Below, in pieces: positions 4,417 to 47,656 of a stretch of 64,000 nt of DNA. Each line of letters begins with the position of its first letter. Positions within the stretch are counted from its first letter, which is position 1. Where the stretch lies: contig JAZDGU010000029.1 in assembly GCA_043806595.1 (NCBI GenBank), positions 2,548 to 66,547 of the forward strand, given 5' to 3'. Below the pieces are notes generated by a model. It saw nothing but the letters and a program-made list of their open reading frames with translations. It made no database searches and had not been told where the DNA came from. The DNA comes from Candidatus Micrarchaeota archaeon (GTDB lineage Archaea; Micrarchaeota; Micrarchaeia; Norongarragalinales; SBBD01). The position numbers were made by a program, and so were the translations under genes.

Positions 4417-4422
4417 AGGCAC

Positions 4423-5898: not shown

Positions 5899-7287
5899 AT
5901 GCTAGCGGATCCGGTGAAAATCAGACTCGGGGAGAAGCCCACACTCAGGATTTCAAGGGACAGGGGCGAGCCCGGCTGGCTTGCGGGAATGCGTGCCTTG
6001 GCGTTCGCGAAGTTCAAGGCCCTTCCCGTGGAATCCTCGGAAACCTTCAAGAAATACGCCGACGTCGGCGGCATCGGATGGGAAAAACTGCGCATCCCGG
6101 CGGAAGAAACGGACAATGTGCTGCACGGGCCGCTCGCGGAAATCGCAGGCGACGGCGGCATTGACCTTCTCCAGATCAACGGGAAAACCGTCAGACTGGG
6201 CAACAGGATAACTGGCAGGGGCGTGGTATTCGAGGACTGGAAGACCGCGATGGATAAGCATCCCGAACTTGCGCACGCTGCGTTGAAGGGGGTGCGGGCG
6301 GAAGGCAAGTTTGCGGCGTTGGGGCTCGCGCTTCACACCGGGGGAGTGCTCGTCCACGTGCCGGATGCGGCGAAGACCCGAGAGCCGATGCGCGTCGTAA
6401 GCATTTCGACGCGGGAAAACGCCATCTCCTCGGAATTGAACGTCGTCTCAGTTGGGAGCGGAGGAAAGGCGGCGGTGTCGTTCGAGCAATATTCTGCCGG
6501 AAAAGGCCGGTCGGTCGCACTCCGGTTTACGTACGCGAAGGCGGGAGAAGGCGCGCGGCTGGCCGTTTCGGAAGTGCAGGCTCTTGGCGGCAACGATGCA
6601 GCAATAGGCGGAAGGCATGCGGAAGTCAGGAGGGATGCGGTGTTCTCCTCGTCCGGCGGGCACTTCGGGGGGTCGACGGCCATTTCCACCGCGGACGCTA
6701 CGCTTGAGGGCGACGGCGCGGCCGCCGAAGACGTCTGCATAGCCTTCGGCAACGGCACACAGAGGCTCAGCATCACATCCAACCTTTTCCATGCGGCGGC
6801 GAACACCGTCGGCAGCGTGCACTCGAAGGGCGTGTTCGCGGAGAACTCCCGGGGCCAGTTCAAGGGAAACATCGAGATTGCAGCCGGCGCCCACGGCAGC
6901 TCGTCCTATCTCGCGGGCCATTCCATCCTCCTAGGAAGCGGAAGCTCCGCAGACTCGATGCCTTCCCTGAAAATCGGGAACAACGACGTCAAGGCCACCC
7001 ACTCCGCTTCCGTATCGCACATCGACGGGGACAAGCTTTTCTATCTCGCGACCCGCGGGTTAGGCCGGAAGCAGGCGGAGAACATCGCGGTCTGCGGGTT
7101 CCTCGAGCAGCTGGTTGCGCGGGCAAGCCAACCCAGGCATCGGAACATGCTCCGCGGGTTCATTGCGGCCAAAATCGCGGGCAGCGGAATCGAGCACGCA
7201 TGGAAGCACGGGGAAACGGATGACGAAAGGAACCAAGCCATGAATGCCGGCAGCGGGATGTTCGAAGGGCATTATAAATATCGCTGA
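5899..7287 (+). CDS. sufD: Fe-S cluster assembly protein SufD
   Basis: Position after sufB. C-terminal SufD motif HIDGDKLFYLATRGLGRKQAENIAVCGFL. 462 aa. Confidence 0.8.
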   Translation: MLADPVKIRLGEKPTLRISRDRGEPGWLAGMRALAFAKFKALPVESSETFKKYADVGGIGWEKLRIPAEETDNVLHGPLAEIAGDGGIDLLQINGKTVRLGNRITGRGVVFEDWKTAMDKHPELAHAALKGVRAEGKFAALGLALHTGGVLVHVPDAAKTREPMRVVSISTRENAISSELNVVSVGSGGKAAVSFEQYSAGKGRSVALRFTYAKAGEGARLAVSEVQALGGNDAAIGGRHAEVRRDAVFSSSGGHFGGSTAISTADATLEGDGAAAEDVCIAFGNGTQRLSITSNLFHAAANTVGSVHSKGVFAENSRGQFKGNIEIAAGAHGSSSYLAGHSILLGSGSSADSMPSLKIGNNDVKATHSASVSHIDGDKLFYLATRGLGRKQAENIAVCGFLEQLVARASQPRHRNMLRGFIAAKIAGSGIEHAWKHGETDDERNQAMNAGSGMFEGHYKYR

Positions 7288-7324
7288 AGCATATTGCAAT
7301 TTTGGATAAATGGGGGATGGATGA

Positions 7325-17396: not shown

Positions 17397-17643
17397 ATTC
17401 CAGCCAAGGCCAATGCACTTCGAGGTAAGCGCCAGACATCAGACATAGGTATGCTCGTCACGGCGTTGGAAGTCGAGCACCTGGATTTTCTTGGCAGACC
17501 AGTCGACGAAATACTTAATCCTGAAACTAGACAATCGGACTCTGTAGAATCCATCGCTTCCGGATAATTGTATTTGTTTAGCTGTCCCCTAGCCAGCTGA
17601 CTGGTAAATAATTGATTCCTACCGAAAAGTATATATTCTTAAT

Positions 17644-18035: not shown

Positions 18036-19361
18036 ATGAACGTGAGAATACGACTTGAGCGAGCATTGCTTCAAATTGCAGAATTGGAAGAAAAGATAAC
18101 CGTGCTCGAGAAGGACAAGAAGTTGCTCGAAAACGAATTGCGGAAGTACCAGAACCCTAACACCCCACCGTCCGCACACCCGCACCTGAAACCAGACTCG
18201 ACACCATTTGGAAGGCGCCGCAAACGCGGCGCCCCACTCAACCACCAAGGCGCTACGCGCCCGTGGAAGAACGCAGATGAAACCAGAGAAATCACTGCCA
18301 GAGAATGCCCCGGATGCCACAGCCCGGATATCCGCGTGATTGGCCAGCGGCACCAACAAGTCGAAGAAATGCCGCCAGACATACAACCCAAAGTAATTGA
18401 TGTTGCCCGCGAAGTCTGCCAGTGCAACGCCTGCCACCTCAAGTTTCAAGCCCGAGACGGCCGCACTCCCATACAAGGACGCTTCGGAATCAACCTAATG
18501 GTCCTCACAATCTTCCTCAAATTCATCGTGCGCGGCGTCCTGCGCAAAACCGCAGGCTTTCTCGAGGCAGGATTCGCCTTGCGAATCACTCCAGCCAGCG
18601 TAAACGCAATAATTACCCGAGCCTCACAGGCTGCCGAGGGTGAGTACGAGCAGTTGAAGCAAAAAATTCGCGTGGCGCGAATCGTTTACGTGGACGAGAC
18701 GAGCTTTTCTGTTCTCGGCGCGAAATGGTGGGTCTGGGTCTTCCGTTCAGATACGGACTTGCTCATCGTCATCCGGCACGACCGGGGGAACCCGGTCGTG
18801 AAAGAAGTGCTTGGGGTGGCTTTCAGTGGAATCGTGGTGTGTGACGGCTGGCGGGCTTACGATTGCCTTTCGCTTGCGAGCATCCAGCGTTGTTGGGCGC
18901 ATTTGCTTCGCAAGTCGGCCGAGTTGGAGGAACAGTCGGTGGCGGGAAGGCATTTTAACGAGAAGCTGGAGCGGTTGTTCAAGTGCATCGAACGGTTTAA
19001 CCGGAAACCGCGTACTGAAGAAGAACGTTTGCGAAAGTACGGGTTGTTGACGGTTAGGCTGCGGGAAACGATTCGGTATTACTCGGGTTATCCTGAGTGC
19101 GGGGGGGTAGCGAATTACGTGGGCAACCGTTTAGGGGAGTGGTTTACTTGTGTTTGGCTCGAGGGAGTCGAGCCTACGAACAATTTTGCCGAGCAGGCCA
19201 TTCGCGAGACGGTCGTGGTTCGTAAGATTATCGGCGCGTTCCGTTCACAGGGCGGTGCGAGGGCTTATGAGAAGTTGGCTTCGCTTCTTGCCACATGGCA
19301 ATTCCAACGGCGTGACGTGGCGAAAGAACTTACGCGAATGTTGTCCACGGGATTATGCTGA
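18036..19361 (+). CDS. IS66-family transposase (TnpC-like DDE)
   Basis: N-terminal leucine zipper, Zn-finger CPGC..CQCNAC, and IS66 hallmarks VYVDETSFSVLG...WWVWVF, QRCWAHLLRK and TNNFAEQAIRETVVVRKIIGAFRSQGGARAYEKLASLL. Confidence 0.85.
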   Translation: MNVRIRLERALLQIAELEEKITVLEKDKKLLENELRKYQNPNTPPSAHPHLKPDSTPFGRRRKRGAPLNHQGATRPWKNADETREITARECPGCHSPDIRVIGQRHQQVEEMPPDIQPKVIDVAREVCQCNACHLKFQARDGRTPIQGRFGINLMVLTIFLKFIVRGVLRKTAGFLEAGFALRITPASVNAIITRASQAAEGEYEQLKQKIRVARIVYVDETSFSVLGAKWWVWVFRSDTDLLIVIRHDRGNPVVKEVLGVAFSGIVVCDGWRAYDCLSLASIQRCWAHLLRKSAELEEQSVAGRHFNEKLERLFKCIERFNRKPRTEEERLRKYGLLTVRLRETIRYYSGYPECGGVANYVGNRLGEWFTCVWLEGVEPTNNFAEQAIRETVVVRKIIGAFRSQGGARAYEKLASLLATWQFQRRDVAKELTRMLSTGLC

Positions 19362-19536
19362 CCAGCTAAACAAATACGGATAATTTACTTAAGTCGAAGC
19401 GTTTTGCGGGGACGGGTTCGGTTGCAAGTACGCCGACAAGTTCGTGAATCCTTTGCCGCATTCTGGCATCCGTTTTTCGAACGGTCTTGAGCGCCTTTGG
19501 GCTGAATTCTACGGAAAACACGCCAAGCACCCTGAA

Positions 19537-31138: not shown

Positions 31139-31330
31139 TTAGTGGGTGATGTGGATGGGCTGGACCTTCATCATCATAGCGCCGAGGAAGACCGCGAAGA
31201 CGAGAAACGCCAGCTGCCAGCCCTCGAGCGCGTAGTTCTGCCACAGTATGTATAGGAGCATGGCGCCGACGACGAGCCAGAGAAGGTACTCGTCGAAAAT
31301 CAGCTGCCAGCTCGACACCCAGTCGACCAT
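31139..31330 (-). CDS. small two-helix membrane protein (63 aa)
   Basis: LLWLVVGAMLLYILW...LAFLVFAVFLGAMMM. Sits 38 nt upstream of the 361-aa gene on the same strand. Confidence 0.3.
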   Translation of the reverse strand: MVDWVSSWQLIFDEYLLWLVVGAMLLYILWQNYALEGWQLAFLVFAVFLGAMMMKVQPIHITH

Positions 31331-31499: not shown

Positions 31500-32771
31500 A
31501 TGGCCAACAAACCGCACCTGAACTTGATTTTCACGGGCCACGTGGACCACGGCAAGTCCACGCTCGTGGGCAGGATCCTGTACGACACGGGCGCGCTGTC
31601 CGAGAACGACCTTAGGAAGCTCAAGGAGGAGGCCGCAAAGATGGGCAAGGCAACATTCGAGTTCGCATTCGCGATGGACCAGCTCAAGGAGGAGAGGGAG
31701 CGCGGCGTGACCATCGACATCGCCCACAAGGACTTCAACACCCAGAAATACTACTTCACGATAATCGACGCCCCCGGGCACAAGGACTTCGTCAAGAACA
31801 TGATCACCGGCGCGTCGCAGGCCGACGCCGCCGTGCTCGTCTGCAGCGCGAAGGAGGGCGTGCAGGCGCAGACCATCGAGCACGCGTTCCTTCTCAAGGT
31901 GCTCGGCGTGTCGCAGTTCATCATCGCCATCAACAAGATGGATGCGGTGAACTACGACCGCATCAAGTACGAGGACACCAAGCAGGCGCTTTCCGCGAAG
32001 CTCAAGAGCATGGGCTACCCCGTGGACAAGATACCGTTCATCCCCGTGTCCGCATACATGGGCGACAACGTCGCCAAGAAGAGCGACAAGACGCAGTGGT
32101 ACGCCGGCCCGACCATACTCGAGGCCTTCGACCAGCTCACCGAGCCCAAGAAGGCGACCGACAAGCCCCTCAGGCTGCCCATACAGGAGGTCTTCACCAT
32201 CACCGGACAGGGCACGGTGCCCGTCGGCCGCGTAGAGTCCGGCATACTCAAGCCGAACACGACCATCGTCATCATGCCCGAGAACGTCACGGGAGAGGTC
32301 AAGACCATCGAGATGCACCACCAGCAGCTCGCGCAGGCCATCCCCGGCGACAACGTCGGCTTCGCGCTCAAGGGCATCGACAAGAAGGCCATCAAGCGCG
32401 GCAGCGTCGTCGGCTACCCGCAGGCGCCGCCGACCGTCGCCGAAGAGTTCACGGCGCAGATCGTCGTGCTCAACCACCCGACTGCAATCGGCAAGAACTA
32501 CACACCCGTGTTCCATTTGCACACCGCGCAGATTGCGTGCACGATAACCGAGATCCTCGAGAAGAAGGACCCCAAGACCGGGCAGACCGCACAGAAGAAC
32601 CCGGACTTCATCAAGACCGGCGACGTCGCCATCGTGAAGGTCAAGCCCACGAAGCCGACGTGCGCCGAGAAATACTCGGAATACCCGGCGCTCGGCCGCT
32701 TCGCCATGCGCGACATGGGCCAGACCGTCGCCGCGGGGATCATCCTCGAAATCGTGCCCAAGAAGGCATAG
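31500..32771 (+). CDS. tuf: translation elongation factor aEF-1 alpha
   Basis: GHVDHGKST, DAPGHKDF, NKMD, SAY, and the full EF-Tu/EF1A domain II and III. Alternative start 31509. Confidence 0.93.
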   Translation: MANKPHLNLIFTGHVDHGKSTLVGRILYDTGALSENDLRKLKEEAAKMGKATFEFAFAMDQLKEERERGVTIDIAHKDFNTQKYYFTIIDAPGHKDFVKNMITGASQADAAVLVCSAKEGVQAQTIEHAFLLKVLGVSQFIIAINKMDAVNYDRIKYEDTKQALSAKLKSMGYPVDKIPFIPVSAYMGDNVAKKSDKTQWYAGPTILEAFDQLTEPKKATDKPLRLPIQEVFTITGQGTVPVGRVESGILKPNTTIVIMPENVTGEVKTIEMHHQQLAQAIPGDNVGFALKGIDKKAIKRGSVVGYPQAPPTVAEEFTAQIVVLNHPTAIGKNYTPVFHLHTAQIACTITEILEKKDPKTGQTAQKNPDFIKTGDVAIVKVKPTKPTCAEKYSEYPALGRFAMRDMGQTVAAGIILEIVPKKA

Positions 32772-32820: not shown

Positions 32821-33132
32821 TTGAACATGAACCGCGCGCGCATCAAGCTCGAAAGCCAGGACTACAATGACCTGGACGCAGTCTGCACCCAGATCAAGGA
32901 CATCGCCAAGAAGGCCGGCATCGAGCTCAAGGGCCCAATACCCCTACCCACCAAGAAGCTCAAGATTTCCACGCGCAAGACTCCCTGCGGCGACGGCTCG
33001 GACACGTACGAGAAGTGGGAGCTGCGCGTGCACAAGCGGCTGATTGAAATCAAGGCCGACGACCGCGTGCTCCGCGACATAATGAGAATCCGCATTCCCG
33101 ACAGCGTGCACGTCGAGATGCACCTCAACTGA
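32821..33132 (+). CDS. rps10: 30S ribosomal protein S10 (uS10)
   Basis: RIKLESQDYNDLDAVCTQIKDIAKKAGIELKGPIPLPTKK...RIPDSVHVEMHLN. Canonical tuf-rps10 linkage. Confidence 0.92.
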   Translation: MNMNRARIKLESQDYNDLDAVCTQIKDIAKKAGIELKGPIPLPTKKLKISTRKTPCGDGSDTYEKWELRVHKRLIEIKADDRVLRDIMRIRIPDSVHVEMHLN

Positions 33133-33204
33133 TTCACGAACGGACTAAATGGAAAGGGGAGAGGCCACACGCGTAGGGGAAAACCGAAGGTTGTCCCCTG
33201 AGGT

Positions 33205-33267
33205 GTGCGCGACATCATGCGCATCCGCATTCCCGACAGCGTGCACGTCGAGATGCACCTGAATTAA
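33205..33267 (+). repeat. direct duplicate of the last 21 codons of rps10, located 73 nt downstream of the gene
   Basis: 33205-33267 against 33066-33132: 38-nt identical core (atccgcattcccgacagcgtgcacgtcgagatgcacct). All other differences are synonymous (ata/atc, aga/cgc, ctc/ctg, aac/aat, tga/taa) plus one codon deletion. An in-frame stop lies 2 codons upstream of the copy. Confidence 0.8.
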
Positions 33268-33366
33268 GGACTTTTTCCGACTGCCCCCCCCGCCTAATAC
33301 CGTCGTAAGATACGTGCCTAGTAGCGGGCATACAAGTTGCGGGAAAGTCAGACTTGCAATGCGGGT

Positions 33367-33753
33367 TTAGAACCGGTTCTTGTTGTCCGCCTGCGAGAAG
33401 TCCTCCTCGACCTTGTAGCGCTCCTTAGGCGGGCGCCGGCCCGGCGAATCTGAGGAAAGCCTCGCGAGGATGTCCGCGGAAGAAATCGCCGCGTTCTCCC
33501 TTGCAGGAGTGCCGCCACTGCCATGCGGGCCCGGCTCCCCCTGCGTTCTGGAAGAGAGGTAGAAGAAAATCGCCGCCACGCCGGCTGCGAAAAGGACTAC
33601 CGATGCGGTCAAGGCCGGATTGGCCATCGAAAGCCCGGGAAGCGTCAGCGCCCCCGTCAGCGGGTGCGAGACGGACAGCGCCTGCAGGAAGAAGTAGGAC
33701 GCGCCCATGAACAGCAGGAGGACCGCTACGGCTATTGAAATGTTCCCACGCAT
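33367..33753 (-). CDS. hypothetical membrane protein (128 aa)
   Basis: Three hydrophobic helices and a C-terminal charged tail. 3 nt downstream of the next gene on the same strand. Confidence 0.45.
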   Translation of the reverse strand: MRGNISIAVAVLLLFMGASYFFLQALSVSHPLTGALTLPGLSMANPALTASVVLFAAGVAAIFFYLSSRTQGEPGPHGSGGTPARENAAISSADILARLSSDSPGRRPPKERYKVEEDFSQADNKNRF

Positions 33754-36266: not shown

Positions 36267-39200
36267 TCAGCCTGAAGTCGCGGCCTGGGCGCGCAACGCC
36301 TCGTTGAGAAACTCGAGCGCCTTCCGGTAGCCGGCGTCATTGCCCTGGTCGACGAGCTTTTCCGCCTCCTCGATGGACTTGACGACCTCCGGCGGGCACT
36401 GGTAACCGTCGCACCACTCCTTATAGCGCGCCAACAGGTTCGTCGCGGCTTCCGACAATGGAACAGGCGTCTGCGGGCCAGACTGCTCGTCCGACACCGG
36501 CACCCCAGCCCCCTCCAGCGCCGAATACCCGGGCAGTGCCGAAGACGTGACCACTGCTTCCGTGACGCTGAACGAGTCCGTCTGGACAGGCTTGGATGCC
36601 GCGAAGAAGGACTCCGCAATCGCCTGGGTGGCCTGCCTGCCGTTGAAAGCGGTAAGCAAATCATACTGGGGGACTCCGGCATACTCCGGGCCCTTGATGA
36701 AGTAGAAGCAGAACGGCTTCGTCCTCGGGCACAAGGCATTGGCGTCGACGCGGTTGAGGCAGACGGTCTTGCTTGCCTCGTCGCGCGTGCAAATCTCCTT
36801 GACCGACGTGACCGGGTCAGGGGCGTTGTCCAAGGTGGGGTTGTTGAAGACCACGACGTGGTTGCCGTAGCGGTAGTCCAACTCGGCGCGCACGGGCCTC
36901 AGGTCCGCGTAGGTGAGTATTGGTCCGAGAACGGCGACGATGGTCCCAACCAGCCGCGGGATCTTTGCGGGGGCGAACATGGACTTGAACCTGCTGCCGG
37001 CGTTCGTGAACTGCTTGAAGAAGCCTCCCGTGGTCTTCGCCGCCTTCGCGACGTCGTCGCCCTCGCTCTTGAGGACGTTCCGAGTGATGTCGATTATCGG
37101 TTTCTCGCTCTTGACGTTTCCTCCGGAAATCAGGGTCCGAGTTCTCGATAAAAGCCGGTCAGTCACTGTCGCTCCCCTTCCGAATTTTACATCGGCATCT
37201 GGAATTGAGGACATCGCGTTTTGCACCGTTCCCAGCCTAGGATACTTCGCGGTCATTTTGCGCAGGAAATCGTCGTACTGATCGGCAGGCACTATCGATT
37301 CCGCCTTGAGTATTCCCTTGAAGCTGAACGGCTTTCGGGTTCCTGTTGCGACATCCCCCCTTTGCCTCAAGTGCTCAAGCACGTGATCAAGTGTCTCTTC
37401 CTTCAAATATTGTGCCTCACTACTAATTCCAGCAGGCCATGGACCAGAGTGTAGGAAATTCCCGTTTCTAGGACCCTTGGCGGCAGTAAGCGAATCAACA
37501 ACATCGGCCCAGAGAGATGTCGAACCCGCCTTGGTGGATCTTGTGCCTCTCAACGAGGTCACTATCTGCTCCATGCGGCGCTGATACAAGGCGTTATCTA
37601 CGGGATTAAGCGACTTCTGCAGGGTGTCGTCGGCGAGCTTGTCGAAGAGTTCCTCCATCGCGTCGCGCCCGAGCATGTCGGACATGGCATCCATTATTAC
37701 TGGGTCGTTGGGTGGAATCTTCACCTTCACCAGTTCGTGGAAATCGGCGGCAGCCTTGCCCTTGGCGACAAGTTTCGTGATTGTCCTTGCGCTGAGGTCG
37801 CCGCCGAGGCCGAGGCGTTCTGCTTCCTTGATGCCATTGCGGAGGCCGATCGAGGCGTCGTAAGCCGAGCCCATCGATAGCCCGTAGTAGCGCGTCCCCT
37901 GTTCGGCCATCCACGCCGTGCTCCCCCAAGGCAGAATCGACCTGAACGCCTTCCCCGCTGGCAGCACAAGGTCGGGCTTGGCAACGACCTTGTCGTCTCC
38001 CTTGACGTACTCCACTCCCGAGAAAACCGCGCTGAAAGCCGTGAACGTGAGGAACTCGCTGGCAAATCTTGCGCCCAGGAACTTGGCGCTGAACGCCTGC
38101 CCGATGTTCCTCATAGTAGCGGCGCTGACGCCTTCGGCCGGCTTGAGGCCGAAGTTGGGGATGTACGCGGTAAACGTGTTAAGCAGGTAGTATGACGCGC
38201 CCTGCGCGCAGGCGTTCGCGGCGTCGCACGTGTTTGCGTCCTTGAATACGGCGTTTCCGACGTTGACGACGGAAGTCGAGCCGCACAATGCTAGCGTCGA
38301 AGCGAAGCCCATGACGGTTTCCTTGAGAGCGTAAGATACGCCGAAGGTCGCCATGATACCCTGGATGACCAAGTTTGGAGCGCTCGCGGCCATCACCGAA
38401 CCGGTGACCGCGCCCAACCGCTTGGTGCAGTAGCCTGCGTCGCTGTAGGACGGCGAATAGGAGAACAGGTTGGGACTGCTGCCATACAAGGCGGAGATCA
38501 AGCCCTGGGCGTTCCGCTCGTCCAACTCGCTGTTTCCGCCGCGGTAGGAACCAAAGTAAATCAGCTTGAACTTGTCGAATATGCTCTTGGCTTCCGCGGC
38601 GTCATTCGGCTTGCGGAGCTCGAAATAGGGCAGCTTGGTGTTCGCCTTGACCTGCTCGCGTCCGACGATGATTTGCGGGTCCTCGGCGGTAAGCAGGCCG
38701 GCGTTCGCGAGCGTCTCCTCGCACGCCTTGAACTGCGTCGGGTCGGCGGGATTGACGGCCATCTCTATTGACGCGGAGCGCAGCCACGCCTTCTTGTCCG
38801 GGAAGGAATTGGGGCTCTTGCAGAGGCCGAGGCGCGCAGTCACGATGTAGATGCCGCACGAGGATATGCCGCCCGAGGTGTCCCACTTGAAGTCTTCTAC
38901 GTACTTCTCGCCAGAAGCGTCGCGGAGCTCGCCGAGGCCCTCGTCAACGGACTTCTGCAGCTCGTTGAAAGAGACGCGCGTGTTCGCGCTCTGCACGATG
39001 ATGCTTTTATAGAAGCCGTTGCGGTTGTGGACGACGAGCCTCGGCTCGGACGGGTTGCAGAACGTCGAGATTTCCTTGGGGTATTTCTCGTCGAAGTAGA
39101 ACTTGAGGACGAACTCCTGCAGCTTCGCACCGAAGCCCTTGTAGGCGTCCTGCAGCTGTTCGCCGTTGCCCGTGCAGAAGTTCGTCTGGCACTGCATCGT

Positions 39201-42200
39201 CCCACCGGCGAGCGCGTCCAGCTTGCCCTGACTCTGGGCTCCAGTAGCGCCGGCATCGGACGCCAACAGCGCATCCGCGGCGTTTTCAGGAGTCCCGGCG
39301 CCGTCGGCAGGCGTCTCGAAGTAGAGGAAAACCCCGCCCGCGGTCTGGGCCGCGCCGCCTCCTGCGGGCTCGCCGGTGCCGCCCTCCTGCGCGGCCTTCT
39401 TGGCATCGTCCGTCGAGGCGAGCTCGGGCACCGGGACGGTGAGCGTCTGCTGTGGCACGAGGTCGCCCATGGGCGAGGACGGGAAGAACTCCTTGAGGGT
39501 TTCGTCGAGCGGCTTGCCGCCGACACCGACAATGACGGCGACCCTGCGCTGTTCGGGCTTGGTGGAAATCGCGCCGACGGAACGGATCTCGATGAAGCCT
39601 TCACCGGCCTTTTCCGCGGTGCATTCCGCGATGTAGCCGGTTCCGGCCTTCAGCGCCTGCGGGATGTCGCAGGATGCAAGAATGCTTCCGTCGCGGGATT
39701 TCGCGGCGTAGGAGAGCGAGAGGTCCTCGTCGTAGTTGTTCGTCATGGAGAGCCAGCGCTTGTGGCCGACGTCCTTGAAGACGAGCACCTGCGGCTCGCC
39801 GTTCTTGGCGTTGGTCTGGCCCTGCTGGTAGTTGACGTAGAAGCCGTTGAGCGCCGCGGACAGCTGCTTGCCGAGGTTGCCGAGGCACTTGCCGGTGTCC
39901 ACGAACGAAATCCTGATGGGCGCATCCTTGGCGGGCACCGTGCCCTGCCTTACCACGCCGAAGACGATCAGCTTGCCTTCCACGGACTGTTCCTCGAACG
40001 CCTCGGGCTTGAGGCAGCCGTACTCGTCGAGGAACTGCTCGGGGACGCCGACCTCGACCTCGAAACTCTGCCTCGGGCACGGGTCTTCGCCGGCGAGGTT
40101 GCGCTCGTTGACCCGCATGGAGACCAATTCCTTCAGCCAGGCGCCCTTCTTGGTGATGCTTTTCACCGCGTGGTCGAGGTCGCCCTTGGTAGAGACTATT
40201 GAGGGTCCCTCGAGCCATCCCTGCGGGCCGGAAAGCCGGAGGCCGGAGTTGAGCGGCGTGTTGATTTCCAACCGCACTTCCCTGTTGGAACTTCCCTCGT
40301 TCTTGACGCACAGCAGTTGCGACTGCGTGAGGTGGGAGTTCTCGTTGTTGAAAGTGAAGGTCAGGTCGCCCTCGAGAAGTATCGGGAAGGCCTCGTCGGT
40401 AATCAGCAGCATGCTGCCCTTCGTCTGCTTCTCGCACAGCACGAAGACGGTCTCCTCCTTCTTGGGGACGAGGACCTCGACGGGCGCGGCAGGGGCCTCC
40501 TGGCCGTCAGCAGCTGGTGCTGCAGCAGAGGTCAATATCCGGAAGGAAGGCGGGAAGATGACCTTGCGCACCTGCTTGAGCCCGTATTTCCGCCCGTTGC
40601 GGGAAATCTGGACGGAGAGGCAGGCTCCGTTGAAGTCGGTCTCGCGCGACACCTTGTCGACTTCCGAGGCGGTTGCGGGAAGGGTGTAGGTCACTTCCTC
40701 GCTGAAGATGCCCTTGATGCGGAAGCGTTCCTTGGGCTGGGCCATGTCCGTGGGGGCAATGCGCAACACGAAGAGCGTGTTGTCGGGGATGGTGAACTCG
40801 AGGGGGTCGGAGCCGAAGCTCTCTTCAGTGGTGCGCTTGGACATGATGCGCGTGGCATCGGCCTCGAAGCGGTCCAGCGTCTGTGGATCGGACAGGGTGA
40901 GGGTCACGGGGTTGGAAAGCCGTACTGATTCCATGGGCGAGTCCTTCCAGTAGTCGGTCTTGAGGCCGAGGAGGCTCTCCTGCGGCACGGACACCCCGAC
41001 GTCGAAAGGCAGGGTGAACTCGAAGTCCATGCCCTGCAGCATGGCGAGCTCGGGGTCGACGGTTGTGAAGGTTATTGGCTGGTTGGCGGCAAGCAGGACG
41101 TCGAACGAGGAGTCTTTCCTTTGTGTCTGGGGGGTGAAGCCGGCGGGGAAGGTCGCCTCGTAGCTCGTCGTGGCGATGCGGTTCTGGACGAGGTTCGACT
41201 CGCGGGGGAAGTGCCAGACGGAAGGCGCGGGGAAGGCGACGGTGAAGCTCTCCTGCCCGCGCACGGATTCGGAAGCCTTGAGGATCCTGCGGTCCATGGT
41301 GAGCATCGAGCCTGCGTGAACCTCGAGCTTGGCCGTGCCCTGCGGGGTCTCGGCGGAGGAGGACGCGCCTTCCGCGAGCATCCTGGCTCCGTTGGCGAAC
41401 TCGACGAGCTTGGCGTCGGAGGTCGGCACGTTCCTCACATTGACGTTGGGTGCCAGTGAGAGGCTGAAGCCAGCTGGAATCTCCTTCTCGGAGCCGTAGA
41501 CGCCGAACTCGGCTGGTCCGAGGGACATCTGCGTGTACGGAAGGACGTCAACGGAATAGCTGGAGTCGGGGAGCTTGAGGCCCTTGCGCGCGACACCGTA
41601 GAACGAGAGCTGGCTGCGGTCGTTGGAGATGGAGCTGACGGTGAAGCCGTCCTGCGCGACGCTCACCGAGACCTGCTCGTCCTTCTGGATTCGGAACATC
41701 ACGCGGAACGGCAGCATCATGCTGAGCCTGCCGTAGGGGTCCTGCTGGGCGAAAGGCGAGGGCATGCGGACGGCGCTGCCCGCGGGTATTGTTATCTTCT
41801 TGAAGTCGTTGGAGTCCGTGGAAATTACTGCGTCTGCGGGCAGGGAAATCGTCGTGCCGCTGCGGAACTGGAGCGCCTTGTTGCCGTTGAACTCGTCGCG
41901 CTTGACGCGCACGAACTCCTGCGGCAGGAATACGGCCTCCACGGGGAAGTAGACCTCGTAGGCGTCGCGGGAGGAGACGAAAGGCGTCAGCTGGATGCGG
42001 AAGGGCGTGTTGGAGGGAAGTGAAGCACGGCGCTGGCCGATGTCCCGCTGGCGCGTAAGCCGTATGCTTGCGGGGATGGTGATGTCGAAGTCCTCGACGG
42101 TCGCGGTCTGGAGGGAGCCCTCGCGCGTGAACTCGGTCTCGGGCTCGAAGTCCATGAACAGGCTGACGGGGAAGCGGAGCTCCCACGCGGTGTCGGCCAT

Positions 42201-45200
42201 CGGCTGCTGGTAGGGCTCGTAGCGGTTGGAGTAGCGCTGGTTGCTTGCGACTGCTATCTTGCGCGCCCACGCCGGCGGCACCTGGAAGAACGCGCCCGCC
42301 GGGACTATCGCGGCGAGCGAGCCCGCGGAGGTCTGCAGGGAGAATATGTAGGACGCCTGGTAGGGCGACTGCGCGAGATTCGAGAGGTCGCCGACCTGCG
42401 CGCCCTGCTCGAAGAGCATCGAGTCGCCGCTCGGCAGCTCGACGTACTCCGTTCCGTCGGGGTTCTCCTTGTGCAGGGTGCCCTTGGGGAACTGGAAGAC
42501 GAGCTCGACGGGAAGCGCGAGCCGCACTCCGTTCTTGACCTCGCCGACGTCGGGCAGGGCCTCGGTGGCGCTCACCTCGATTTCGTCGGACGAGCACGGC
42601 GACCCTCCGGCAGCCGTAGTCGCCTTGTAGGTGCCTGCCGCGGGGTAGCTGCATTTGATTGAACAGGAGCCTGTGGTGCCGGTGCAGTCCTTCGCGGTGA
42701 CGGTGCGACCGTTGCCGCAGTTGACTGGAAAGACGTTGGGGGCCTTGGGCAGGTCGTAGTAGCTTATCGTGAGGAGCGTGTTCTGGTTGCGGGAGAGCGT
42801 GGTCGGGTCCGCGGTTATGACGCACTGGGGCTCGGCCTCTGACAGCGGGTCCTCGTCTGGCTTGAGCACGTCGACCTGCACGGCACTGCATTGCGTGCCG
42901 GAGGCGGCTGCCTGGACGGCGTATGTGCCGTCCTGCTCGTAGTAGCACTTGGCCTGGCATGTTCCGGTGGTGCCGCTGCAGCCGGCGGCGTTCGCTGTCC
43001 TGCCGTTGCCGCAGTTGATGAGGAGCGCGTTGGGGGCGCGGGCGAGGTTGTAGTAGTTCGCCGTCACCATCGTGAACTCGCCTTCCTTTATCCTCGAGGG
43101 GTCGATGGTGAGCGCGCAGGAGGGGCGGGATGCCTGAACCTCCACGTATGCCGTCGTACATTCGACGCCGCCGGAAACCGCCAAAACCGTGAACTCGCCT
43201 GCCCGGGGATACCGGCATTTCGCCGAGCACGAGCCGGACTCGCCGGAGCATGAGACCGCGGAAACCTTCCTTCCGTTGCCGCACTCGATTTCGAAGGAGT
43301 TCGGGGAAGGCGAGAAGTCGGAGAAGGCGACGGTAACCGAGGATTCCTGGCCCTCGTCGAGGAGGGAAGGTTCGACGGTGAGGGCGCAGGACGGTTCGGG
43401 CAATGGCGTGGGGGTGACGGTGCCGCCCGAGCCGACGTCGCTGCAGCTGTCCGAGGAAGTGGCCGAATACGTCAGGGAGAGCTGGCGTTTGGAGGAGACG
43501 CCTTGCGTCGTTGCGATAAGCTTGAGCGTCGCGTTGCGCTCGTCCGGCTCGGTTTCGCAGGGGTCGACGGGCATCGCCTTGGCATAGACCCGAAACTCCG
43601 CTGAGCCGCCGCTGGGGACCACCACGGACAGGGGCTCGACGGAGAAAATCCTCGGGAGCGTGTTCTCCTGGTTGACGAGCAGCGGGTAAGGCGCGTCGTT
43701 GGTGACGGTTATCGACTGCATGTCGGACCTGACCTTCGGGGGCTGGAGGGCGAACTGCAGGGACTCGCTGGAGACCTGCCAGAGCGTGCCAAGCTCCTGC
43801 TGGACGAAAGAGGTCTTGACGGTGAACGGCACATATTCCTCCTGAGAGCTTCCGCCGAGCCTGGCGGAAATCCTGATGCGGCCGTTTATCTTCTCGGAGA
43901 CCGTCGAGGCGCGTTCGGCGATCTGGAGGACGGCATCGTCGATTTCGGCGGTCAGGCTCACGGTGCCGGACTGGCGCGCCTTCAACCGCAAGGAGAAGGT
44001 GTCGACGTTGATGCGGGTGTACTTTGGAATCTGCGAGAACTGCAGGGACATGGTCACGGGCACACTGTCCTCGAGGAGGTTGTTCACGGAGAACGCCTGC
44101 TGCTGGGGGTCGCGGGACTCGACGGCGAGGGCAAGGGCAGTTGAGTCGACTTCGACGAGCCTGACTGCGGAAACCAGGAGGGTGCCGCGCTTGGACTTGA
44201 AGCCCTCGGCGTCAATCTTGAAGGATACGTACCCCACGCTGACCGGCCTGATGCCCTCCGCGCGGTACGACGCGCTGCCGTCCCTGCCCTCGGTGTAGAC
44301 GCCCTCAACCTGCGCGCCCCTCAAGGCGTCCGAGCCGTCCCCGAGAACAACTGAAGCGTCCTTGACCGGGAGTCCGAGGGAGTCCGAGACCTTGAACGTT
44401 ACCACGCCGTCGGCAAGCGCCTGCAGCGACTTGGGCGAGTAGGAGACCTTCAGGTCGGGCTTGGTGCCGACGACGCGCGCCGCGAGATTGCGGGTCACCG
44501 TCGACTCGCCGAAGCGCGCCTGCAGCGTCAACGGGACGTCGTTTGAGAGGCGCTGAGCGCGGATTGAGAAGGTGCCGGCTGCGTTGTCATCGGAAGTGGT
44601 AAGCGATATCGCCTGCTCGTCGCCCTTGCGCGCACGCGCGCGGCTGTCACCGCTCACGCCCTCCTCGAGGGAAAGCGAGAGGTCGTCCGCGGGCGAGGTC
44701 AGCTCTATGACCGCGCCGCGTGGGGCCGCTAGCGTGAACTTGAGGGAGAACGTTTCGCCGGACTCCGCGGCGTAGTTGTCCGAGACCGTGCCGCCCCTGC
44801 CCTCGAAGTGAGACTCGAGGCAGACCTCGCCCTCGCAGATGCCGCCGAAGGAGAGGGGAAGCGACACGGAATTGGTTGCCGCGGAGAGGGCGTCGGGCCC
44901 GGCGACGGAGTCGACGGGGTCGCGGAGGATCTCGCGCGAGGTGTAGAACGCGGCGCGGTATTGGACGTTGACCGAGGCGCGGGAAAGCGGCCTGGTGCGT
45001 ATCTGAACGGACACCTCACGGGTGCCCTCGAAGGGCTGGAAGGTGAAGTCCGCGAACTTGTAGCCTTGCACGTCCTCGCCCGCCAGAAACAGGGCGGCGG
45101 CATTCCCGGCCGGGGTCGGCGTCGGGGTCGCGGTGACAGTCGCGGTAGGCTCCTCGCGCGAATACTCGGTGCCCTTGCGGACCACCGCGCTGCCGGAACC

Positions 45201-47240
45201 GTATCCGACTATTTCCGCGGTCTCGCTCTCGAGGGAGGAGTCCTCGTTCCCGATGCGGATGTGAGCCTGTATGCGGGAGACGGAGACCGGCGGCTTGGAC
45301 AGGACGAATCGCAAATTATAGACCGTCGAGGGGGAAAGAGAGGAGGCCTTGTTCCCGGTGAGGTCGTATGCCCCCTGGAACACGAGCTTTGCCCCCGAGA
45401 GCACGCCGACGGGCATCAGCTCGAACTCCTGCTTGTTGTTGACCCCGGGCTTGACCTCGAATTCCGAGGAAAGGAGGTCGTCGTAACCCTCGGCCTCGAC
45501 CCTGGCGGCATAGAAGCCCTCGAGGATCTTGAGGGAACACGCTCCCTTCGAGGTGGTGCAGGAGCCAGTTGCGGCAAACTCGCCCATCGAGGGCGAAAAC
45601 TCGACCCGGGCGCCGTCGATGGTCTTGTTCGTGAAATGGTCGCGGACCTTGACGGAGAGCTTGCCCGGCGCGGGCATGAGTAAGACGTGAAGGAGGTTGA
45701 CGTCCTCGGACTCGCCCGTTCCTTCGACAGTGAGGAGGACGGGCAGGCTGGAGCCGTTCCTTCCCGCGGCGCTCGCAACCGCGATGACCTCGTCGAGGGG
45801 CAGGCCGTCAAATCCCGTCGTGCCGTCCGCGCTCGTGTATTTCTCCGGGACCCCGGTCGGAAGGCCGTCCAAGTAGGAAAGGGATACGTATGCGGAGGGC
45901 ACGAACTCGCCGTTCTTGTCGGTGACCTCGACGACGGCCTTCGCCGAATTGTCCTTGCCGGCCTCCTCCAGCCTGACGGAATACGATTTGCCCTTCTCTG
46001 CGTCCATGATCCTGGCGGGAAGGAAGCCGTACTTGTAGACCGTGACGTAATATGAAGACCTTTCGAGGTCCTTGAAGACGGCGACGCCGTCCGAGGGTAT
46101 TTCCTCGCTTATCTTGGCGCCTTGCGGCTCATGCAGCCAGACCGAGGGATTGGAAAGCGAGCGGTTGTCGGAATCGAAGACGGCTACCGTAATCGAGCGG
46201 AGCTGTTCCTTTGAAACCTTCCTAAGAACCGCGTCGATGCCGGTCTCGGCCTGGACCTCGGTCTCCGCGGAAAGGAAGGCAGGATATCCTGCCGCCTTCA
46301 CGGAGACGTATATGGCCGTTCCTAGCTTGATTTCCTGCGAGGGCACGCCGCCGTCCGCGCCCGACTTGAGGTTCCGGAAGATCGTCTTGCCGGTGCCGGC
46401 CTCGCTTATTTCGATTGTGGCGTTCCCAATGCCCTCGCGGGTGTCCGAGTCGGTGACGCGGATGATAACGCGGCCGTTGACCGCGGACTGCTTCGGCGTC
46501 AGGCCGAAGGGCGGCAGGGTCTTGTCGCTTGAATCGACACGCACGTCGCGCGACTCGTCGTTGAAGCCCTCGGCCTGGACGACGACCTTGTAGGCGGTGT
46601 TCTGCTGGACGTCGAACGTGACAGTAGCCCCGGTCTTGGAATCGGCGATGGGAACGTATGTAGCGGTGTCGAAGAGCCAGAAGGTCGCGGACGAGGGCGG
46701 GGGCTCGACTGAAAGCGCGAGCGAAACAGTGGTCCTTGCGGGTTCGGGCGCGAGCCTGACGGTCACGAGGTTGTTCTCCGACTTCTTGCCGACGCTAACC
46801 CTCGAGCTGGCGCCCGAGTCGAAGGTGAGGGTGGAGCCGTCGAAGCCCGCGGCGGTGAGGGTGAGCTCGGCGCCTACGGGGGCCCCGGAGAAGTAGGCGA
46901 CGCCGTCGGAGCCCGTGGTGGCCTCCATGCGCTTCATGCCGTAGGCGTTCTCGGGGTCGGCGAGGAACACCCTCGCGTCTGACACCGGCAGGCCGTCGGA
47001 TGCGAGCAGCGTGACGGTGACGTCCGCGGTCTTGGGCTCGAATGCCTTCGTGCCGCCGAGCAGAAGGAAGGCGGCCCCGCCGAAAATCAGGAGAAGGATG
47101 AGCAGGAACACGGGCAGCGAGGGAAGGCCCTTCTCCTCGAGCCAGTCCGCGGCGTCCTTGAGGGGGAGGCCCTTGTCCGCGCACCATTCGAGAAAGCCCT
47201 GCCACTTCTCATTGACGGATTCGAAGAATTCCTCGAGCAT
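36267..47240 (-). CDS. giant membrane-anchored surface protein (3657 aa) with many beta-rich Ig/CarbopepD-reg-like repeats, three Cys-rich modules and a roughly 1000-aa non-repetitive C-terminal region
   Basis: Uninterrupted 10,974-nt ORF with host-like GC3. N-terminal signal-anchor LPSLPVFLLILLLIFGGAAFLLLGG. Start set at MLEEFF (47240) because the first in-frame codon (47417) would overlap the upstream Zn-ribbon ORF. Confidence 0.75.
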   Translation of the reverse strand: MLEEFFESVNEKWQGFLEWCADKGLPLKDAADWLEEKGLPSLPVFLLILLLIFGGAAFLLLGGTKAFEPKTADVTVTLLASDGLPVSDARVFLADPENAYGMKRMEATTGSDGVAYFSGAPVGAELTLTAAGFDGSTLTFDSGASSRVSVGKKSENNLVTVRLAPEPARTTVSLALSVEPPPSSATFWLFDTATYVPIADSKTGATVTFDVQQNTAYKVVVQAEGFNDESRDVRVDSSDKTLPPFGLTPKQSAVNGRVIIRVTDSDTREGIGNATIEISEAGTGKTIFRNLKSGADGGVPSQEIKLGTAIYVSVKAAGYPAFLSAETEVQAETGIDAVLRKVSKEQLRSITVAVFDSDNRSLSNPSVWLHEPQGAKISEEIPSDGVAVFKDLERSSYYVTVYKYGFLPARIMDAEKGKSYSVRLEEAGKDNSAKAVVEVTDKNGEFVPSAYVSLSYLDGLPTGVPEKYTSADGTTGFDGLPLDEVIAVASAAGRNGSSLPVLLTVEGTGESEDVNLLHVLLMPAPGKLSVKVRDHFTNKTIDGARVEFSPSMGEFAATGSCTTSKGACSLKILEGFYAARVEAEGYDDLLSSEFEVKPGVNNKQEFELMPVGVLSGAKLVFQGAYDLTGNKASSLSPSTVYNLRFVLSKPPVSVSRIQAHIRIGNEDSSLESETAEIVGYGSGSAVVRKGTEYSREEPTATVTATPTPTPAGNAAALFLAGEDVQGYKFADFTFQPFEGTREVSVQIRTRPLSRASVNVQYRAAFYTSREILRDPVDSVAGPDALSAATNSVSLPLSFGGICEGEVCLESHFEGRGGTVSDNYAAESGETFSLKFTLAAPRGAVIELTSPADDLSLSLEEGVSGDSRARARKGDEQAISLTTSDDNAAGTFSIRAQRLSNDVPLTLQARFGESTVTRNLAARVVGTKPDLKVSYSPKSLQALADGVVTFKVSDSLGLPVKDASVVLGDGSDALRGAQVEGVYTEGRDGSASYRAEGIRPVSVGYVSFKIDAEGFKSKRGTLLVSAVRLVEVDSTALALAVESRDPQQQAFSVNNLLEDSVPVTMSLQFSQIPKYTRINVDTFSLRLKARQSGTVSLTAEIDDAVLQIAERASTVSEKINGRIRISARLGGSSQEEYVPFTVKTSFVQQELGTLWQVSSESLQFALQPPKVRSDMQSITVTNDAPYPLLVNQENTLPRIFSVEPLSVVVPSGGSAEFRVYAKAMPVDPCETEPDERNATLKLIATTQGVSSKRQLSLTYSATSSDSCSDVGSGGTVTPTPLPEPSCALTVEPSLLDEGQESSVTVAFSDFSPSPNSFEIECGNGRKVSAVSCSGESGSCSAKCRYPRAGEFTVLAVSGGVECTTAYVEVQASRPSCALTIDPSRIKEGEFTMVTANYYNLARAPNALLINCGNGRTANAAGCSGTTGTCQAKCYYEQDGTYAVQAAASGTQCSAVQVDVLKPDEDPLSEAEPQCVITADPTTLSRNQNTLLTISYYDLPKAPNVFPVNCGNGRTVTAKDCTGTTGSCSIKCSYPAAGTYKATTAAGGSPCSSDEIEVSATEALPDVGEVKNGVRLALPVELVFQFPKGTLHKENPDGTEYVELPSGDSMLFEQGAQVGDLSNLAQSPYQASYIFSLQTSAGSLAAIVPAGAFFQVPPAWARKIAVASNQRYSNRYEPYQQPMADTAWELRFPVSLFMDFEPETEFTREGSLQTATVEDFDITIPASIRLTRQRDIGQRRASLPSNTPFRIQLTPFVSSRDAYEVYFPVEAVFLPQEFVRVKRDEFNGNKALQFRSGTTISLPADAVISTDSNDFKKITIPAGSAVRMPSPFAQQDPYGRLSMMLPFRVMFRIQKDEQVSVSVAQDGFTVSSISNDRSQLSFYGVARKGLKLPDSSYSVDVLPYTQMSLGPAEFGVYGSEKEIPAGFSLSLAPNVNVRNVPTSDAKLVEFANGARMLAEGASSSAETPQGTAKLEVHAGSMLTMDRRILKASESVRGQESFTVAFPAPSVWHFPRESNLVQNRIATTSYEATFPAGFTPQTQRKDSSFDVLLAANQPITFTTVDPELAMLQGMDFEFTLPFDVGVSVPQESLLGLKTDYWKDSPMESVRLSNPVTLTLSDPQTLDRFEADATRIMSKRTTEESFGSDPLEFTIPDNTLFVLRIAPTDMAQPKERFRIKGIFSEEVTYTLPATASEVDKVSRETDFNGACLSVQISRNGRKYGLKQVRKVIFPPSFRILTSAAAPAADGQEAPAAPVEVLVPKKEETVFVLCEKQTKGSMLLITDEAFPILLEGDLTFTFNNENSHLTQSQLLCVKNEGSSNREVRLEINTPLNSGLRLSGPQGWLEGPSIVSTKGDLDHAVKSITKKGAWLKELVSMRVNERNLAGEDPCPRQSFEVEVGVPEQFLDEYGCLKPEAFEEQSVEGKLIVFGVVRQGTVPAKDAPIRISFVDTGKCLGNLGKQLSAALNGFYVNYQQGQTNAKNGEPQVLVFKDVGHKRWLSMTNNYDEDLSLSYAAKSRDGSILASCDIPQALKAGTGYIAECTAEKAGEGFIEIRSVGAISTKPEQRRVAVIVGVGGKPLDETLKEFFPSSPMGDLVPQQTLTVPVPELASTDDAKKAAQEGGTGEPAGGGAAQTAGGVFLYFETPADGAGTPENAADALLASDAGATGAQSQGKLDALAGGTMQCQTNFCTGNGEQLQDAYKGFGAKLQEFVLKFYFDEKYPKEISTFCNPSEPRLVVHNRNGFYKSIIVQSANTRVSFNELQKSVDEGLGELRDASGEKYVEDFKWDTSGGISSCGIYIVTARLGLCKSPNSFPDKKAWLRSASIEMAVNPADPTQFKACEETLANAGLLTAEDPQIIVGREQVKANTKLPYFELRKPNDAAEAKSIFDKFKLIYFGSYRGGNSELDERNAQGLISALYGSSPNLFSYSPSYSDAGYCTKRLGAVTGSVMAASAPNLVIQGIMATFGVSYALKETVMGFASTLALCGSTSVVNVGNAVFKDANTCDAANACAQGASYYLLNTFTAYIPNFGLKPAEGVSAATMRNIGQAFSAKFLGARFASEFLTFTAFSAVFSGVEYVKGDDKVVAKPDLVLPAGKAFRSILPWGSTAWMAEQGTRYYGLSMGSAYDASIGLRNGIKEAERLGLGGDLSARTITKLVAKGKAAADFHELVKVKIPPNDPVIMDAMSDMLGRDAMEELFDKLADDTLQKSLNPVDNALYQRRMEQIVTSLRGTRSTKAGSTSLWADVVDSLTAAKGPRNGNFLHSGPWPAGISSEAQYLKEETLDHVLEHLRQRGDVATGTRKPFSFKGILKAESIVPADQYDDFLRKMTAKYPRLGTVQNAMSSIPDADVKFGRGATVTDRLLSRTRTLISGGNVKSEKPIIDITRNVLKSEGDDVAKAAKTTGGFFKQFTNAGSRFKSMFAPAKIPRLVGTIVAVLGPILTYADLRPVRAELDYRYGNHVVVFNNPTLDNAPDPVTSVKEICTRDEASKTVCLNRVDANALCPRTKPFCFYFIKGPEYAGVPQYDLLTAFNGRQATQAIAESFFAASKPVQTDSFSVTEAVVTSSALPGYSALEGAGVPVSDEQSGPQTPVPLSEAATNLLARYKEWCDGYQCPPEVVKSIEEAEKLVDQGNDAGYRKALEFLNEALRAQAATSG
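42570..43400 (-). repeat. three tandem Cys-rich modules of about 85-95 aa (about 270 nt each) inside the giant gene
   Basis: Protein repeats SCALTVEPS...IECGNGRKVSAVSCSGESGSCSAKCRYPRAGEF, SCALTIDPS...INCGNGRTANAAGCSGTTGTCQAKCYYEQDGTY and CVITADPT...VNCGNGRTVTAKDCTGTTGSCSIKCSYPAAGTY. Consensus C..(T/I).P......I.CGNGR....C.G..G.C..KC.Y...G.Y. Confidence 0.6.
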
Positions 47241-47320
47241 GCGGATTATCGGAAAGATAGGGCGAAAACACTTATTTAAATACCATCGTAGCGGCCAAAT
47301 GGAAAAAATTCGCGTCCTGC

Positions 47321-47656
47321 TCAGCGGACCCTCCGCTGGAGAGGCAGGACCGAACCGCACTTCCTGCAGACCTTCTCCTTGTGCTTCCAGTTCAGTTCGA
47401 AGTCCGTGCCTCCGCACTCGGGGCAGGCGCGTATCTCGCTCTTGTGGAAGTCCATCCAGCCCTCCTTGCCGTCGCGGCCGGCGAAGGACTGGTGGGAGAA
47501 GGCGACGCGCTCGCGGCGGTCGGTCAGCTGGGGCTTGTCGTCATCGAACTTCTTCTTCTCGACGGCGGGCTTGACCTTGCGGCTGGAGCACCGCGGGCAG
47601 ATGACCGCATCCTCGGCCTCCCAGTGCAGCGAACAATTGTCGCAGGCGTATTTCAT
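47321..47656 (-). CDS. double zinc-ribbon protein (111 aa)
   Basis: CDNC...CPRC and CPEC...CRKC pairs. 80 nt upstream of the giant gene on the same strand. Confidence 0.5.
   Translation of the reverse strand: MKYACDNCSLHWEAEDAVICPRCSSRKVKPAVEKKKFDDDKPQLTDRRERVAFSHQSFAGRDGKEGWMDFHKSEIRACPECGGTDFELNWKHKEKVCRKCGSVLPLQRRVR

Follow-up and report, generated by a model that had tools for sequence, protein, structure and literature searches.

The 3′ end of rps10 in the 64,000-nt stretch of Micrarchaeota DNA analyzed here (the window) is present twice, and the two copies are separated by one copy of a conserved non-coding, GC-rich hairpin repeat of ~60 nt, the S element, which is dispersed in Micrarchaeota. 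The same tail-S-tail layout recurs at rps10 in other Micrarchaeota lineages and at two other genes. We lean, at slightly better than even confidence, towards the reading that this small repeat is linked to recombination events in the conserved coding core that displace gene tails, in which case the second copy would be a former or allelic functional tail of rps10.

In the window, rps10 is complete at 32827–33132 with its TGA stop at 33130–33132 (coordinates are on the plus strand unless noted). The 101-aa ribosomal protein S10 that it encodes is 100% identical to a 101-aa Micrarchaeota MAG protein in NCBI (PF00338), and nearly all of the S10 homologues listed are 100–102 aa long. The last 18 codons and the stop (copy 1, the translated tail; 33076–33132, reading GAC ATA ATG ... 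AAC TGA) occur again in the rps10 frame at 33211–33267 (copy 2, the putatively displaced tail, reading GAC ATC ATG ... AAT TAA), and both copies translate to DIMRIRIPDSVHVEMHLN followed by a stop. Within them lies an identical core of 38 nt (33088–33125 and 33223–33260), which is found exactly twice in the 64 kb, with zero occurrences expected from dinucleotide shuffles. The repeat in the window is thereby confirmed as real and statistically solid. The original prediction, made from the letters of the window, had described the in-frame recurrence and the identical core as we find them. It had also given the repeat 21 codons and one codon deletion; the repeat stands, with a secure length of 19 codons (57 nt), and the deletion does not. 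The GTG[CTC]CGC similarity behind it shares bases with the 3′ strand of the S outer stem (GTGTG, 33203–33207), and since that strand is also present in solo S copies elsewhere, the secure repeat is 19 codons rather than 21.

The spacer between copy 1 and copy 2 measures 78 nt and begins with a short flank (33133–33150, TTCACGAACGG...) that, on comparison, is similar to the native post-stop flank (TTC...) of relatives lacking S. The first oligo-T run after rps10, a T5 at 33272–33276 that is likely an archaeal termination signal, lies 3′ of copy 2 and not of copy 1; none occurs between the copy-1 stop and copy 2. In the S-free loci L011 and L100 the oligo-T follows directly after the stop, and in L099 it follows copy 2. 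Copy 2 itself sits outside any long open reading frame, the only possibility being a 20-codon mini-ORF from the GTG at 33205.

Five codons differ between the two copies in the window (ATA/ATC, AGA/CGC, CTC/CTG, AAC/AAT and TGA/TAA), and all five changes, the stop switch included, are synonymous, as had been predicted; the AGA/CGC pair, described as a three-nucleotide switch, differs at two nucleotides. Over the window, L001, L004 and the ribosomal protein P1 gene of L099, every one of 14 differing codons (17 nt, stop-to-stop included) is synonymous; random single-base changes in the same sequences would be so in only about 19–26% of cases. On these codon comparisons, neutral drift of a copy since an old duplication can be considered excluded, and the idea that copy 2 behaves like a former functional gene end is supported. 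In L001, a lineage-specific His-to-Leu change is present in both tails, with different Leu codons (CTT and TTG). A diversity-generating retroelement was rejected as the source of the differences, since they comprise A/C, C/G, C/T and G/A in both directions and are not confined to adenine, and no reverse transcriptase is found among the neighbors.

The codon data also bear on an origin in situ, which we consider unlikely. Here, the insertion of S a few bases past the stop, or replication slippage at the hairpin, would have duplicated about 40–60 nt of the target as a very long target-site or local tandem duplication, followed by intragenomic gene conversion, with no exchange between lineages. 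Neutral decay of such a duplicate, however, would give mostly non-synonymous differences, and 0 of 14 are seen; the Leu residue encoded by different codons in the two tails of L001 is likewise hard to fit to it.

The S element of the window spans 33151–33214 (covariance-model match of 40.9 bits, E about 1e-7) and is the only match of the model in the window even with filters off. It carries a purine-rich leader, GGGGAGAGGC, an outer stem that pairs 33166–33170 with 33203–33207, and a 6-bp inner stem (AGGGGA/TCCCCT) that pairs 33175–33180 with 33194–33199. A 4x3 internal loop (GCGT/GAG) separates the stems, the apical loop is extended, and GTAG directly precedes the G run in the inner stem. The predicted RNA fold has an energy of -27.3 kcal/mol (z = -3.0). 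The first 28 nt are 96% identical to an S copy of L006 at another locus, upstream of tuf. The inner hairpin had been recognized beforehand, as had an in-frame TGA, which we place inside S at 33199–33201 and which blocks read-through from rps10 into copy 2. A Shine-Dalgarno-like GGAGGTG occurs in S, 5′ of a GTG/ATG in frame with copy 2.

Several other explanations for the spacer were tried and rejected. Stop-codon read-through or recoding does not agree with the in-frame TGA in the window or with L001, where copy 2 is out of frame, and a 3716-codon open reading frame without internal TGA shows that TGA is a stop here. The internal loop of S (4x4, or 4x3 in the window) between 5-bp and 6-bp stems is not a bulge-helix-bulge, and the lineages do not share the palindrome seen at the putative splice point, so an archaeal intron of that type was dismissed. 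By inspection, the GA/AG pairs, C box or pocket expected of a K-turn, C/D box or H/ACA sRNA are missing. The repeat features do not fit a CRISPR-like mini-array, and no tRNA or known RNA was found in the spacer of the window.

As a family, S is defined by the purine-rich leader (GGGG.AGAGGC), a 5-bp outer stem and a 6-bp inner stem whose G run is directly preceded by GTAG; the internal loop between the stems is 4x4, or 4x3 in the window. The foot of the inner stem reads GCGTAGGGG...CCCC in the window, L001, one S copy of L089 (L089a) and L006, and GAGTAGGGG or GTGTAGGGG elsewhere; L004 (GCATGGGGG) departs from this. Scanning metagenome contigs with a strict pattern returned three loci, one of them a false positive (L090), and placed S beside a gene other than rps10 (L089). 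A covariance model (R1) built from five copies matches the window, L001, L004, L019, L023, L098, L099 and L100. Among 11 aligned copies, all 120 of 120 pair cells are standard and 6 of 11 base pairs show compensatory changes; no shuffle reached these values and slid controls pair at 36–66%, though the alignment is model-fitted and holds only 11 copies, so that the figures lean towards structure. Long forms of S in L099, L023 and L098, folded separately, consist of three consecutive hairpins of the same architecture with partly different stem sequences. No Rfam family matches at the gathering score in the window, and relaxing the threshold to E<=10 around S in L099, L023 and the window gave matches at chance level only. 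Across the DNA covered, the number of S copies ranges from one in the 64-kb window to three within 0.8 kb in L100. The dispersal of S, and with it the word mobile, is read from a handful of loci, several of the key ones being contigs of 1–2 kb.

Solo copies of S adjoin tRNA-Arg or sit in intergenic DNA. In L019 (3237–3362, minus strand) and L023 (2931–3101, minus strand, long form), S ends exactly at +1 of tRNA-Arg(GCG), which would make it the 5′ leader of the pre-tRNA. The solo copies in L019, L023 and L100 (9864–9920) are not flanked by any adjacent direct repeat of >=10 nt, which indicates that the duplication is not an obligatory product of S insertion; that is, S does not bring about an automatic target-site duplication. 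This also counts against the origin in situ.

Other S or S-like sequences were seen in passing. The 2-kb contig of L006 starts and ends inside S copies (1–115 and 1981–2003); the upstream copy adjoins the first eight codons (minus strand) of a homologue of a small membrane ORF found at 31139–31330 in the window, and its apical loop holds an insertion of ~70 nt with two extra hairpins. Downstream of rps10 in L044, two 95%-identical 78-nt inserts (7124–7201 and 7245–7322) lie in an apparent multi-intron tRNA gene, which received no ARAGORN call and for which trial splicing gave ambiguous assignments; on the opposite strand the inserts begin with GGGGTAGAGGGGCACGAG, a sequence similar to the S leader. 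In two more distant relatives (L093 at ~2070–2200 and L012 at ~4300–4600), rps10 is followed by a tRNA-Ser-like gene with one or more non-canonical introns, and the intron of L012 has a weak 22-bit antisense match to S.

A further alternative would make S a small or cis-acting RNA of the rps10 3′ UTR, with copy 2 kept as a mini-ORF of 16–20 residues or as an RNA decoy, a reading that we hold to be improbable. Every S copy with an assignable neighbor is sense to the adjacent transcription unit, S contains G-U but no A-C pairs, and copy 2 is conserved at the codon level; no oligo-T separates the copy-1 stop from copy 2, and by inspection the S outer stem supplies an in-frame GTG ahead of copy 2 in the window, L004, L089 and L099. 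These points count in its favor. The closest relatives L005, L007 and L092, however, have neither S nor copy 2, the downstream copies at a CoA-binding gene encode different tails (see below), the spacer of L001 has no in-frame GTG, and Rfam holds no such family. To our knowledge, no function has been assigned to the C-terminal peptide of S10.

The comparison among relatives covered the rps10 loci belonging to the closest S10 proteins and those of 80 GTDB species representatives. Tail-S-tail is present in L001–3 (S10 91% identical) and L004 (92%), with spacers of ~60–75 nt; in L006 (96%) the tail-S arrangement begins and the contig ends inside the spacer. The layout thus exists at rps10 in at least two, and probably three, diverged Micrarchaeota lineages, the carriers' rps10 bodies being only 75–85% identical in nucleotides. 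It is absent from L005, whose S10 protein is that of L004, from L007/8 (97%), L092 (93%) and L011/L096 (88%), and from all more distant archaea. The junction between S and copy 2, ..GT[G/C]CGC[-/G/A]GA[C/T]ATCATG, is the same in the window, L004 and L001, which argues for a single origin at rps10. S-free alleles (L005, L007/8, L092) fall within the carrier clusters, and repeated losses or transfers therefore have to be supposed.

An assembly artefact joining two strain variants of the rps10 end has a negligible probability in our estimate. As a MAG contig, the window stems from a mixed community, and the contig of L006 breaks inside S at both of its ends, as such an artefact might do. Nevertheless, the arrangement is found in independent JGI, ENA and NCBI assemblies from different samples with lineage-specific sequences, and is therefore not the product of assembly; the junction sequences are conserved as well.

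Within each genome, copy 2 agrees with its own copy 1 at 42–45 of 45 head and core positions, and the differences are confined to the first codon and the last three to four codons. That the cores are identical within genomes and different between them is what an origin in situ would leave, as is the repeat of L004, which extends 4 nt beyond the stop (TTCG 3′ of both copies). The copy-2 tail of L004 equals the functional tail of the S-free L005 at 12 of 12 positions, while the copy-1 tail of L004 matches it at only 9 of 12, and copy 2 of the window equals copy 1 of L004 over the same 12-nt tail (12/12); with 12-nt tails and few variable sites, such matches between lineages could be coincidence. 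L005 and L004 share the same S10 protein and are 89% identical in the gene body. The incongruence between tail phylogeny and gene body at rps10 is, on these short alignments, only suggestive. The 12/12 match nonetheless agrees, as do the synonymous codons, with the proposal already made in the original prediction that the second copy came from a functional rps10 end.

That prediction went on to take the repeat as the signature of an integrative element whose body is now missing or only about 70 bp long. The duplication does flank inserted DNA, and that part of the claim holds; the further step, to an attL/attR scar left by a plasmid or provirus with its own integrase, is not supported. Far from being a remnant, the spacer is an intact ~60-nt hairpin that is kept in diverged lineages and also occurs at unrelated loci. 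Integration at a gene's 3′ end with a replacement end carried in attP is known from phage 21 and e14 in icd, and a direct repeat of a gene end with only synonymous divergence is the classical mark of such integration. The region downstream of rps10 is, besides, an insertion hot spot. We nevertheless judge it quite improbable that the repeats are attL and attR of a site-specific plasmid or provirus whose attP contained the rps10 3′ end and which has since lost its body by deletion. Against it stand the 78-nt spacer, an intact covarying hairpin across lineages whose rps10 bodies are 75–85% identical, and the presence of the same hairpin between duplicated tails of other genes as well as alone.

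The searches for an element were likewise negative. Allowing <=3 mismatches, no third copy of the core exists in the 64-kb window. No integrase, recombinase, reverse transcriptase or transposase was detected at the locus in Pfam scans of the neighboring ORFs or among the called genes of L001–L004, L099 and L100; for integrases and transposases the result in the window covers about 7 kb around the repeat, and no integrase was found near any S copy. Neither the rps10 end nor S was recovered from viruses or plasmids by an S10-based and two S-pattern scans of IMG/VR or by blastn against phages and plasmids. Downstream of rps10, relatives differ in the presence or absence of S, and those with the arrangement keep it with no mobile element body, which is largely the outcome that the original prediction had named as refuting it.

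The surroundings of rps10 are those of an ordinary core region. Upstream in the operon lies tuf (EF-1 alpha; 31500–32771, its start inferred by length comparison), where relatives have a 423-aa GTP_EFTU protein. A convergent conserved neighbor of 128 aa without Pfam match (33367–33753, minus strand), homologous to a 123-aa gene in L004 and L005, marks the end of the variable intergenic region. The remaining neighbors, which are syntenic with relatives, include genes for Cbf5/TruB, eIF2-gamma and an acylphosphatase, along with a giant surface-type ORF. This ORF (36267–47417, minus strand) encodes 3716 aa, with counterparts of 3453 aa in L001 and at least 2843 aa in L004, whose locus ends before the ORF does; its only matches, faint ones of CarboxypepD_reg/SpaA type, make it probably a surface protein. 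The sole transposase found is an IS66-family ORF of the window, 14 kb from the rps10 repeat (18036–19361, PF03050), which is bounded by perfect 15-nt inverted repeats (17570–17584 and 19363–19377) and sits in a low-GC island (0.51–0.55 versus about 0.62 elsewhere). An IS66/IS240-type transposase is also present in L100.

A toxin-antitoxin-like pair of a nucleotidyltransferase (MNT) and HEPN occurs immediately downstream of rps10 in L004 (3913–4880), L007 (965–1132) and L008 (916–1053). It follows copy 2 in L004 and the single tail directly in L007/8, and is absent in the window, L001 and L005. As this insertion is found with and without S, the spacer downstream of rps10 is an insertion hot spot independent of S. 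In L088 (Micrarchaeum sp., DYHY01000002, a distant relative), the last 18 nt of rps10 (CTCCGGGAAACCAAGTAA) are exactly repeated 32 nt downstream (6298–6365); the spacer is not recognizably S-like, and a similar event may have taken place there independently.

Genes unrelated to rps10 display the same layout. In L099, the last 36 nt of the gene for ribosomal protein P1, stop included, occur a second time after an interval made up of TTTC, a long-form S and AGC. The two copies are identical at 34 of 36 bases, and both differences are synonymous. An oligo-T terminator follows the second copy, and in the S-free L100 the terminator comes directly after the stop.

The CoA-binding gene goes further, with two to three stacked tails of which the downstream copies encode different tails. 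In L089 and L100, the gene ends in ...WKSGSDSQK and a stop, followed by CTAA, a first S (S1), the tail CMKKEHEKMARMNSQK with its stop, ATAA and a second S (S2). In L098, an 87% relative, the gene ends in ...MRAGLDSQK and a stop, followed by ATAA, an S of the S2 type, the tail MKKEHEKWKSGSDSQK with its stop, CTAA, an S of the S1 type and then (C)MKKEHEKLR.... The units of tail, stop, 4 nt and S are therefore swapped in order between L089/L100 and L098, and each tail type travels with its own S subtype. The tails are also mosaic with respect to the gene body. L100 and L098 are 88–96% identical over most of the body and agree at 38 of 47 positions in the tail. For L104 and L100, the proteins are 69% identical and the nucleotides 54–80% per 50-nt block, while the W-type tail block is identical at 41 of 44 positions (93%); one tail type is thus common to genes with about 66% identity elsewhere. 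Swapped units and mosaic tails at this gene show that tails have been exchanged between lineages. At every site the unit consists only of the tail, a flank of 4–25 nt and the hairpin, with no protein-coding cargo.

For the origin in situ, these loci cut both ways. The tandem alternation of tail and S in L089/L100 is the kind of layout that it would produce, and by eye the 3′ end of S has a 3–4 nt similarity to the gene upstream of copy 1. A single S is present at rps10 and at the ribosomal protein P1 gene, however, and the swapped units and mosaic tails of the CoA-binding gene need exchange between lineages, which an origin in situ does not include.

Tail displacement accommodates these features as follows. 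A unit made of the end of the coding core, a functional rps10 tail, its stop, a few flank bases and S would have recombined within the conserved coding core at the 3′ end of rps10 and so have come to lie ahead of the resident tail. The incoming tail would be copy 1, which is now translated, and the resident tail would be copy 2, pushed about 135 nt downstream together with its native terminator and untranslated as part of S10. We infer this direction from copy 2 having the native terminator and from the 12/12 match of the L004 copy-2 tail to L005, and the upstream tail and S are therefore read as incoming. Copy 2 would be codon-clean because it was a working gene end and would stay allelic to the tails of S-free strains in the same populations. 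Recombination or gene conversion across the common core would keep the cores identical within a genome, and such homogenization would leave the S-proximal ends, that is the copy-1 tail and the copy-2 head, to differ, and only at synonymous sites. A single crossover between diverged donor and recipient would not yield identical cores, so the reading has to add further homogenization, by gene conversion, through very close donors or through recombination with S-free alleles able to pair with either copy. Neither a donor molecule nor a circle junction nor an enzyme was observed; we count this against the displacement reading, together with the need for homogenization, the shortness of the tails, the single S copy in the window, the short contigs and the model-fitted alignment.

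A bolder extension, which we offer as a doubtful possibility, is that S is an undescribed non-autonomous mobile element of DPANN archaea that uses the last 40–60 nt of a host gene as a portable homology arm. The unit of gene tail and S might arise from an mRNA 3′ fragment, or a small circle, with its 3′ end set by the hairpin. It could then invade the orthologous gene in other cells through the coding core and swap the C-terminal tail, and the displaced tails would be stacked behind S as a miniature cassette array.

If tail displacement holds, a 60-nt non-coding hairpin can remodel and exchange the 3′ ends of genes, essential ribosomal protein genes included, and would do so in ultra-small uncultivated archaea without an encoded recombinase. 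Homologous recombination and strain polymorphism among DPANN archaea would then have a natural marker in the displaced tails. S is in addition a candidate structured element, supported by covariation and absent from Rfam. For annotation, such duplicated gene ends should not be taken for prophage att sites.

Considered alongside known systems, the finding appears to be an undescribed variant of known phenomena. As in phage or ICE integration (phage 21 and e14 in icd), a repeat of the gene end flanks an insert and the gene is kept intact by a foreign synonymous end. Unlike in those cases, there is no integrase and no kb-scale body, but a conserved 60-nt hairpin that also occurs alone and persists across diverged lineages. 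The layout of a full gene followed by partial 3′ copies, each keeping the conserved core, is shared with the C-terminal displacement arrays of Rhs and the CdiA 'orphan' tips (PMC3150448) and with the C-terminal duplications beside mobile endonuclease ORFs in fungal mitochondria (PMC6279837). As in C-terminal displacement, the tails would be of different lineage origin, with the newest fused to the gene and older ones stacked downstream. The units here, in contrast, measure only about 100–135 nt, and their cargo is a non-coding hairpin where the known systems have a toxin/immunity gene or homing endonuclease. Among the S targets are two essential ribosomal protein genes, so their tails differ only synonymously.

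The S element itself most resembles the REP or GTAG-tagged palindromes, which along with MITE-like elements are described as repeats of bacteria (PMC3733652); double-hairpin elements and GC clusters of fungal mitochondria, cited in PMC3787672, form a further comparable group. S, too, is a short, imperfect, GC-rich palindrome; most copies have GTAG where the inner stem has its 5′ foot, and like REP sequences S lies just downstream of ORFs, where it is probably transcribed. It departs from REP in being archaeal (DPANN), in its low copy number in the DNA seen, and in having an extra outer stem, a purine-rich leader and long forms with two more hairpins; no RAYT was seen among the genes examined, and no parent IS was identified. 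MITEs have terminal inverted repeats, a target-site duplication of 2–10 bp and a related IS, whereas S is flanked by repeats of 36–57 nt at three genes and by none at solo copies, and the ends of the IS66 element in the window are unrelated to it. What sets S apart from the described REP and MITE families is that it is tied to 36–57-nt duplications of the end of the gene upstream.
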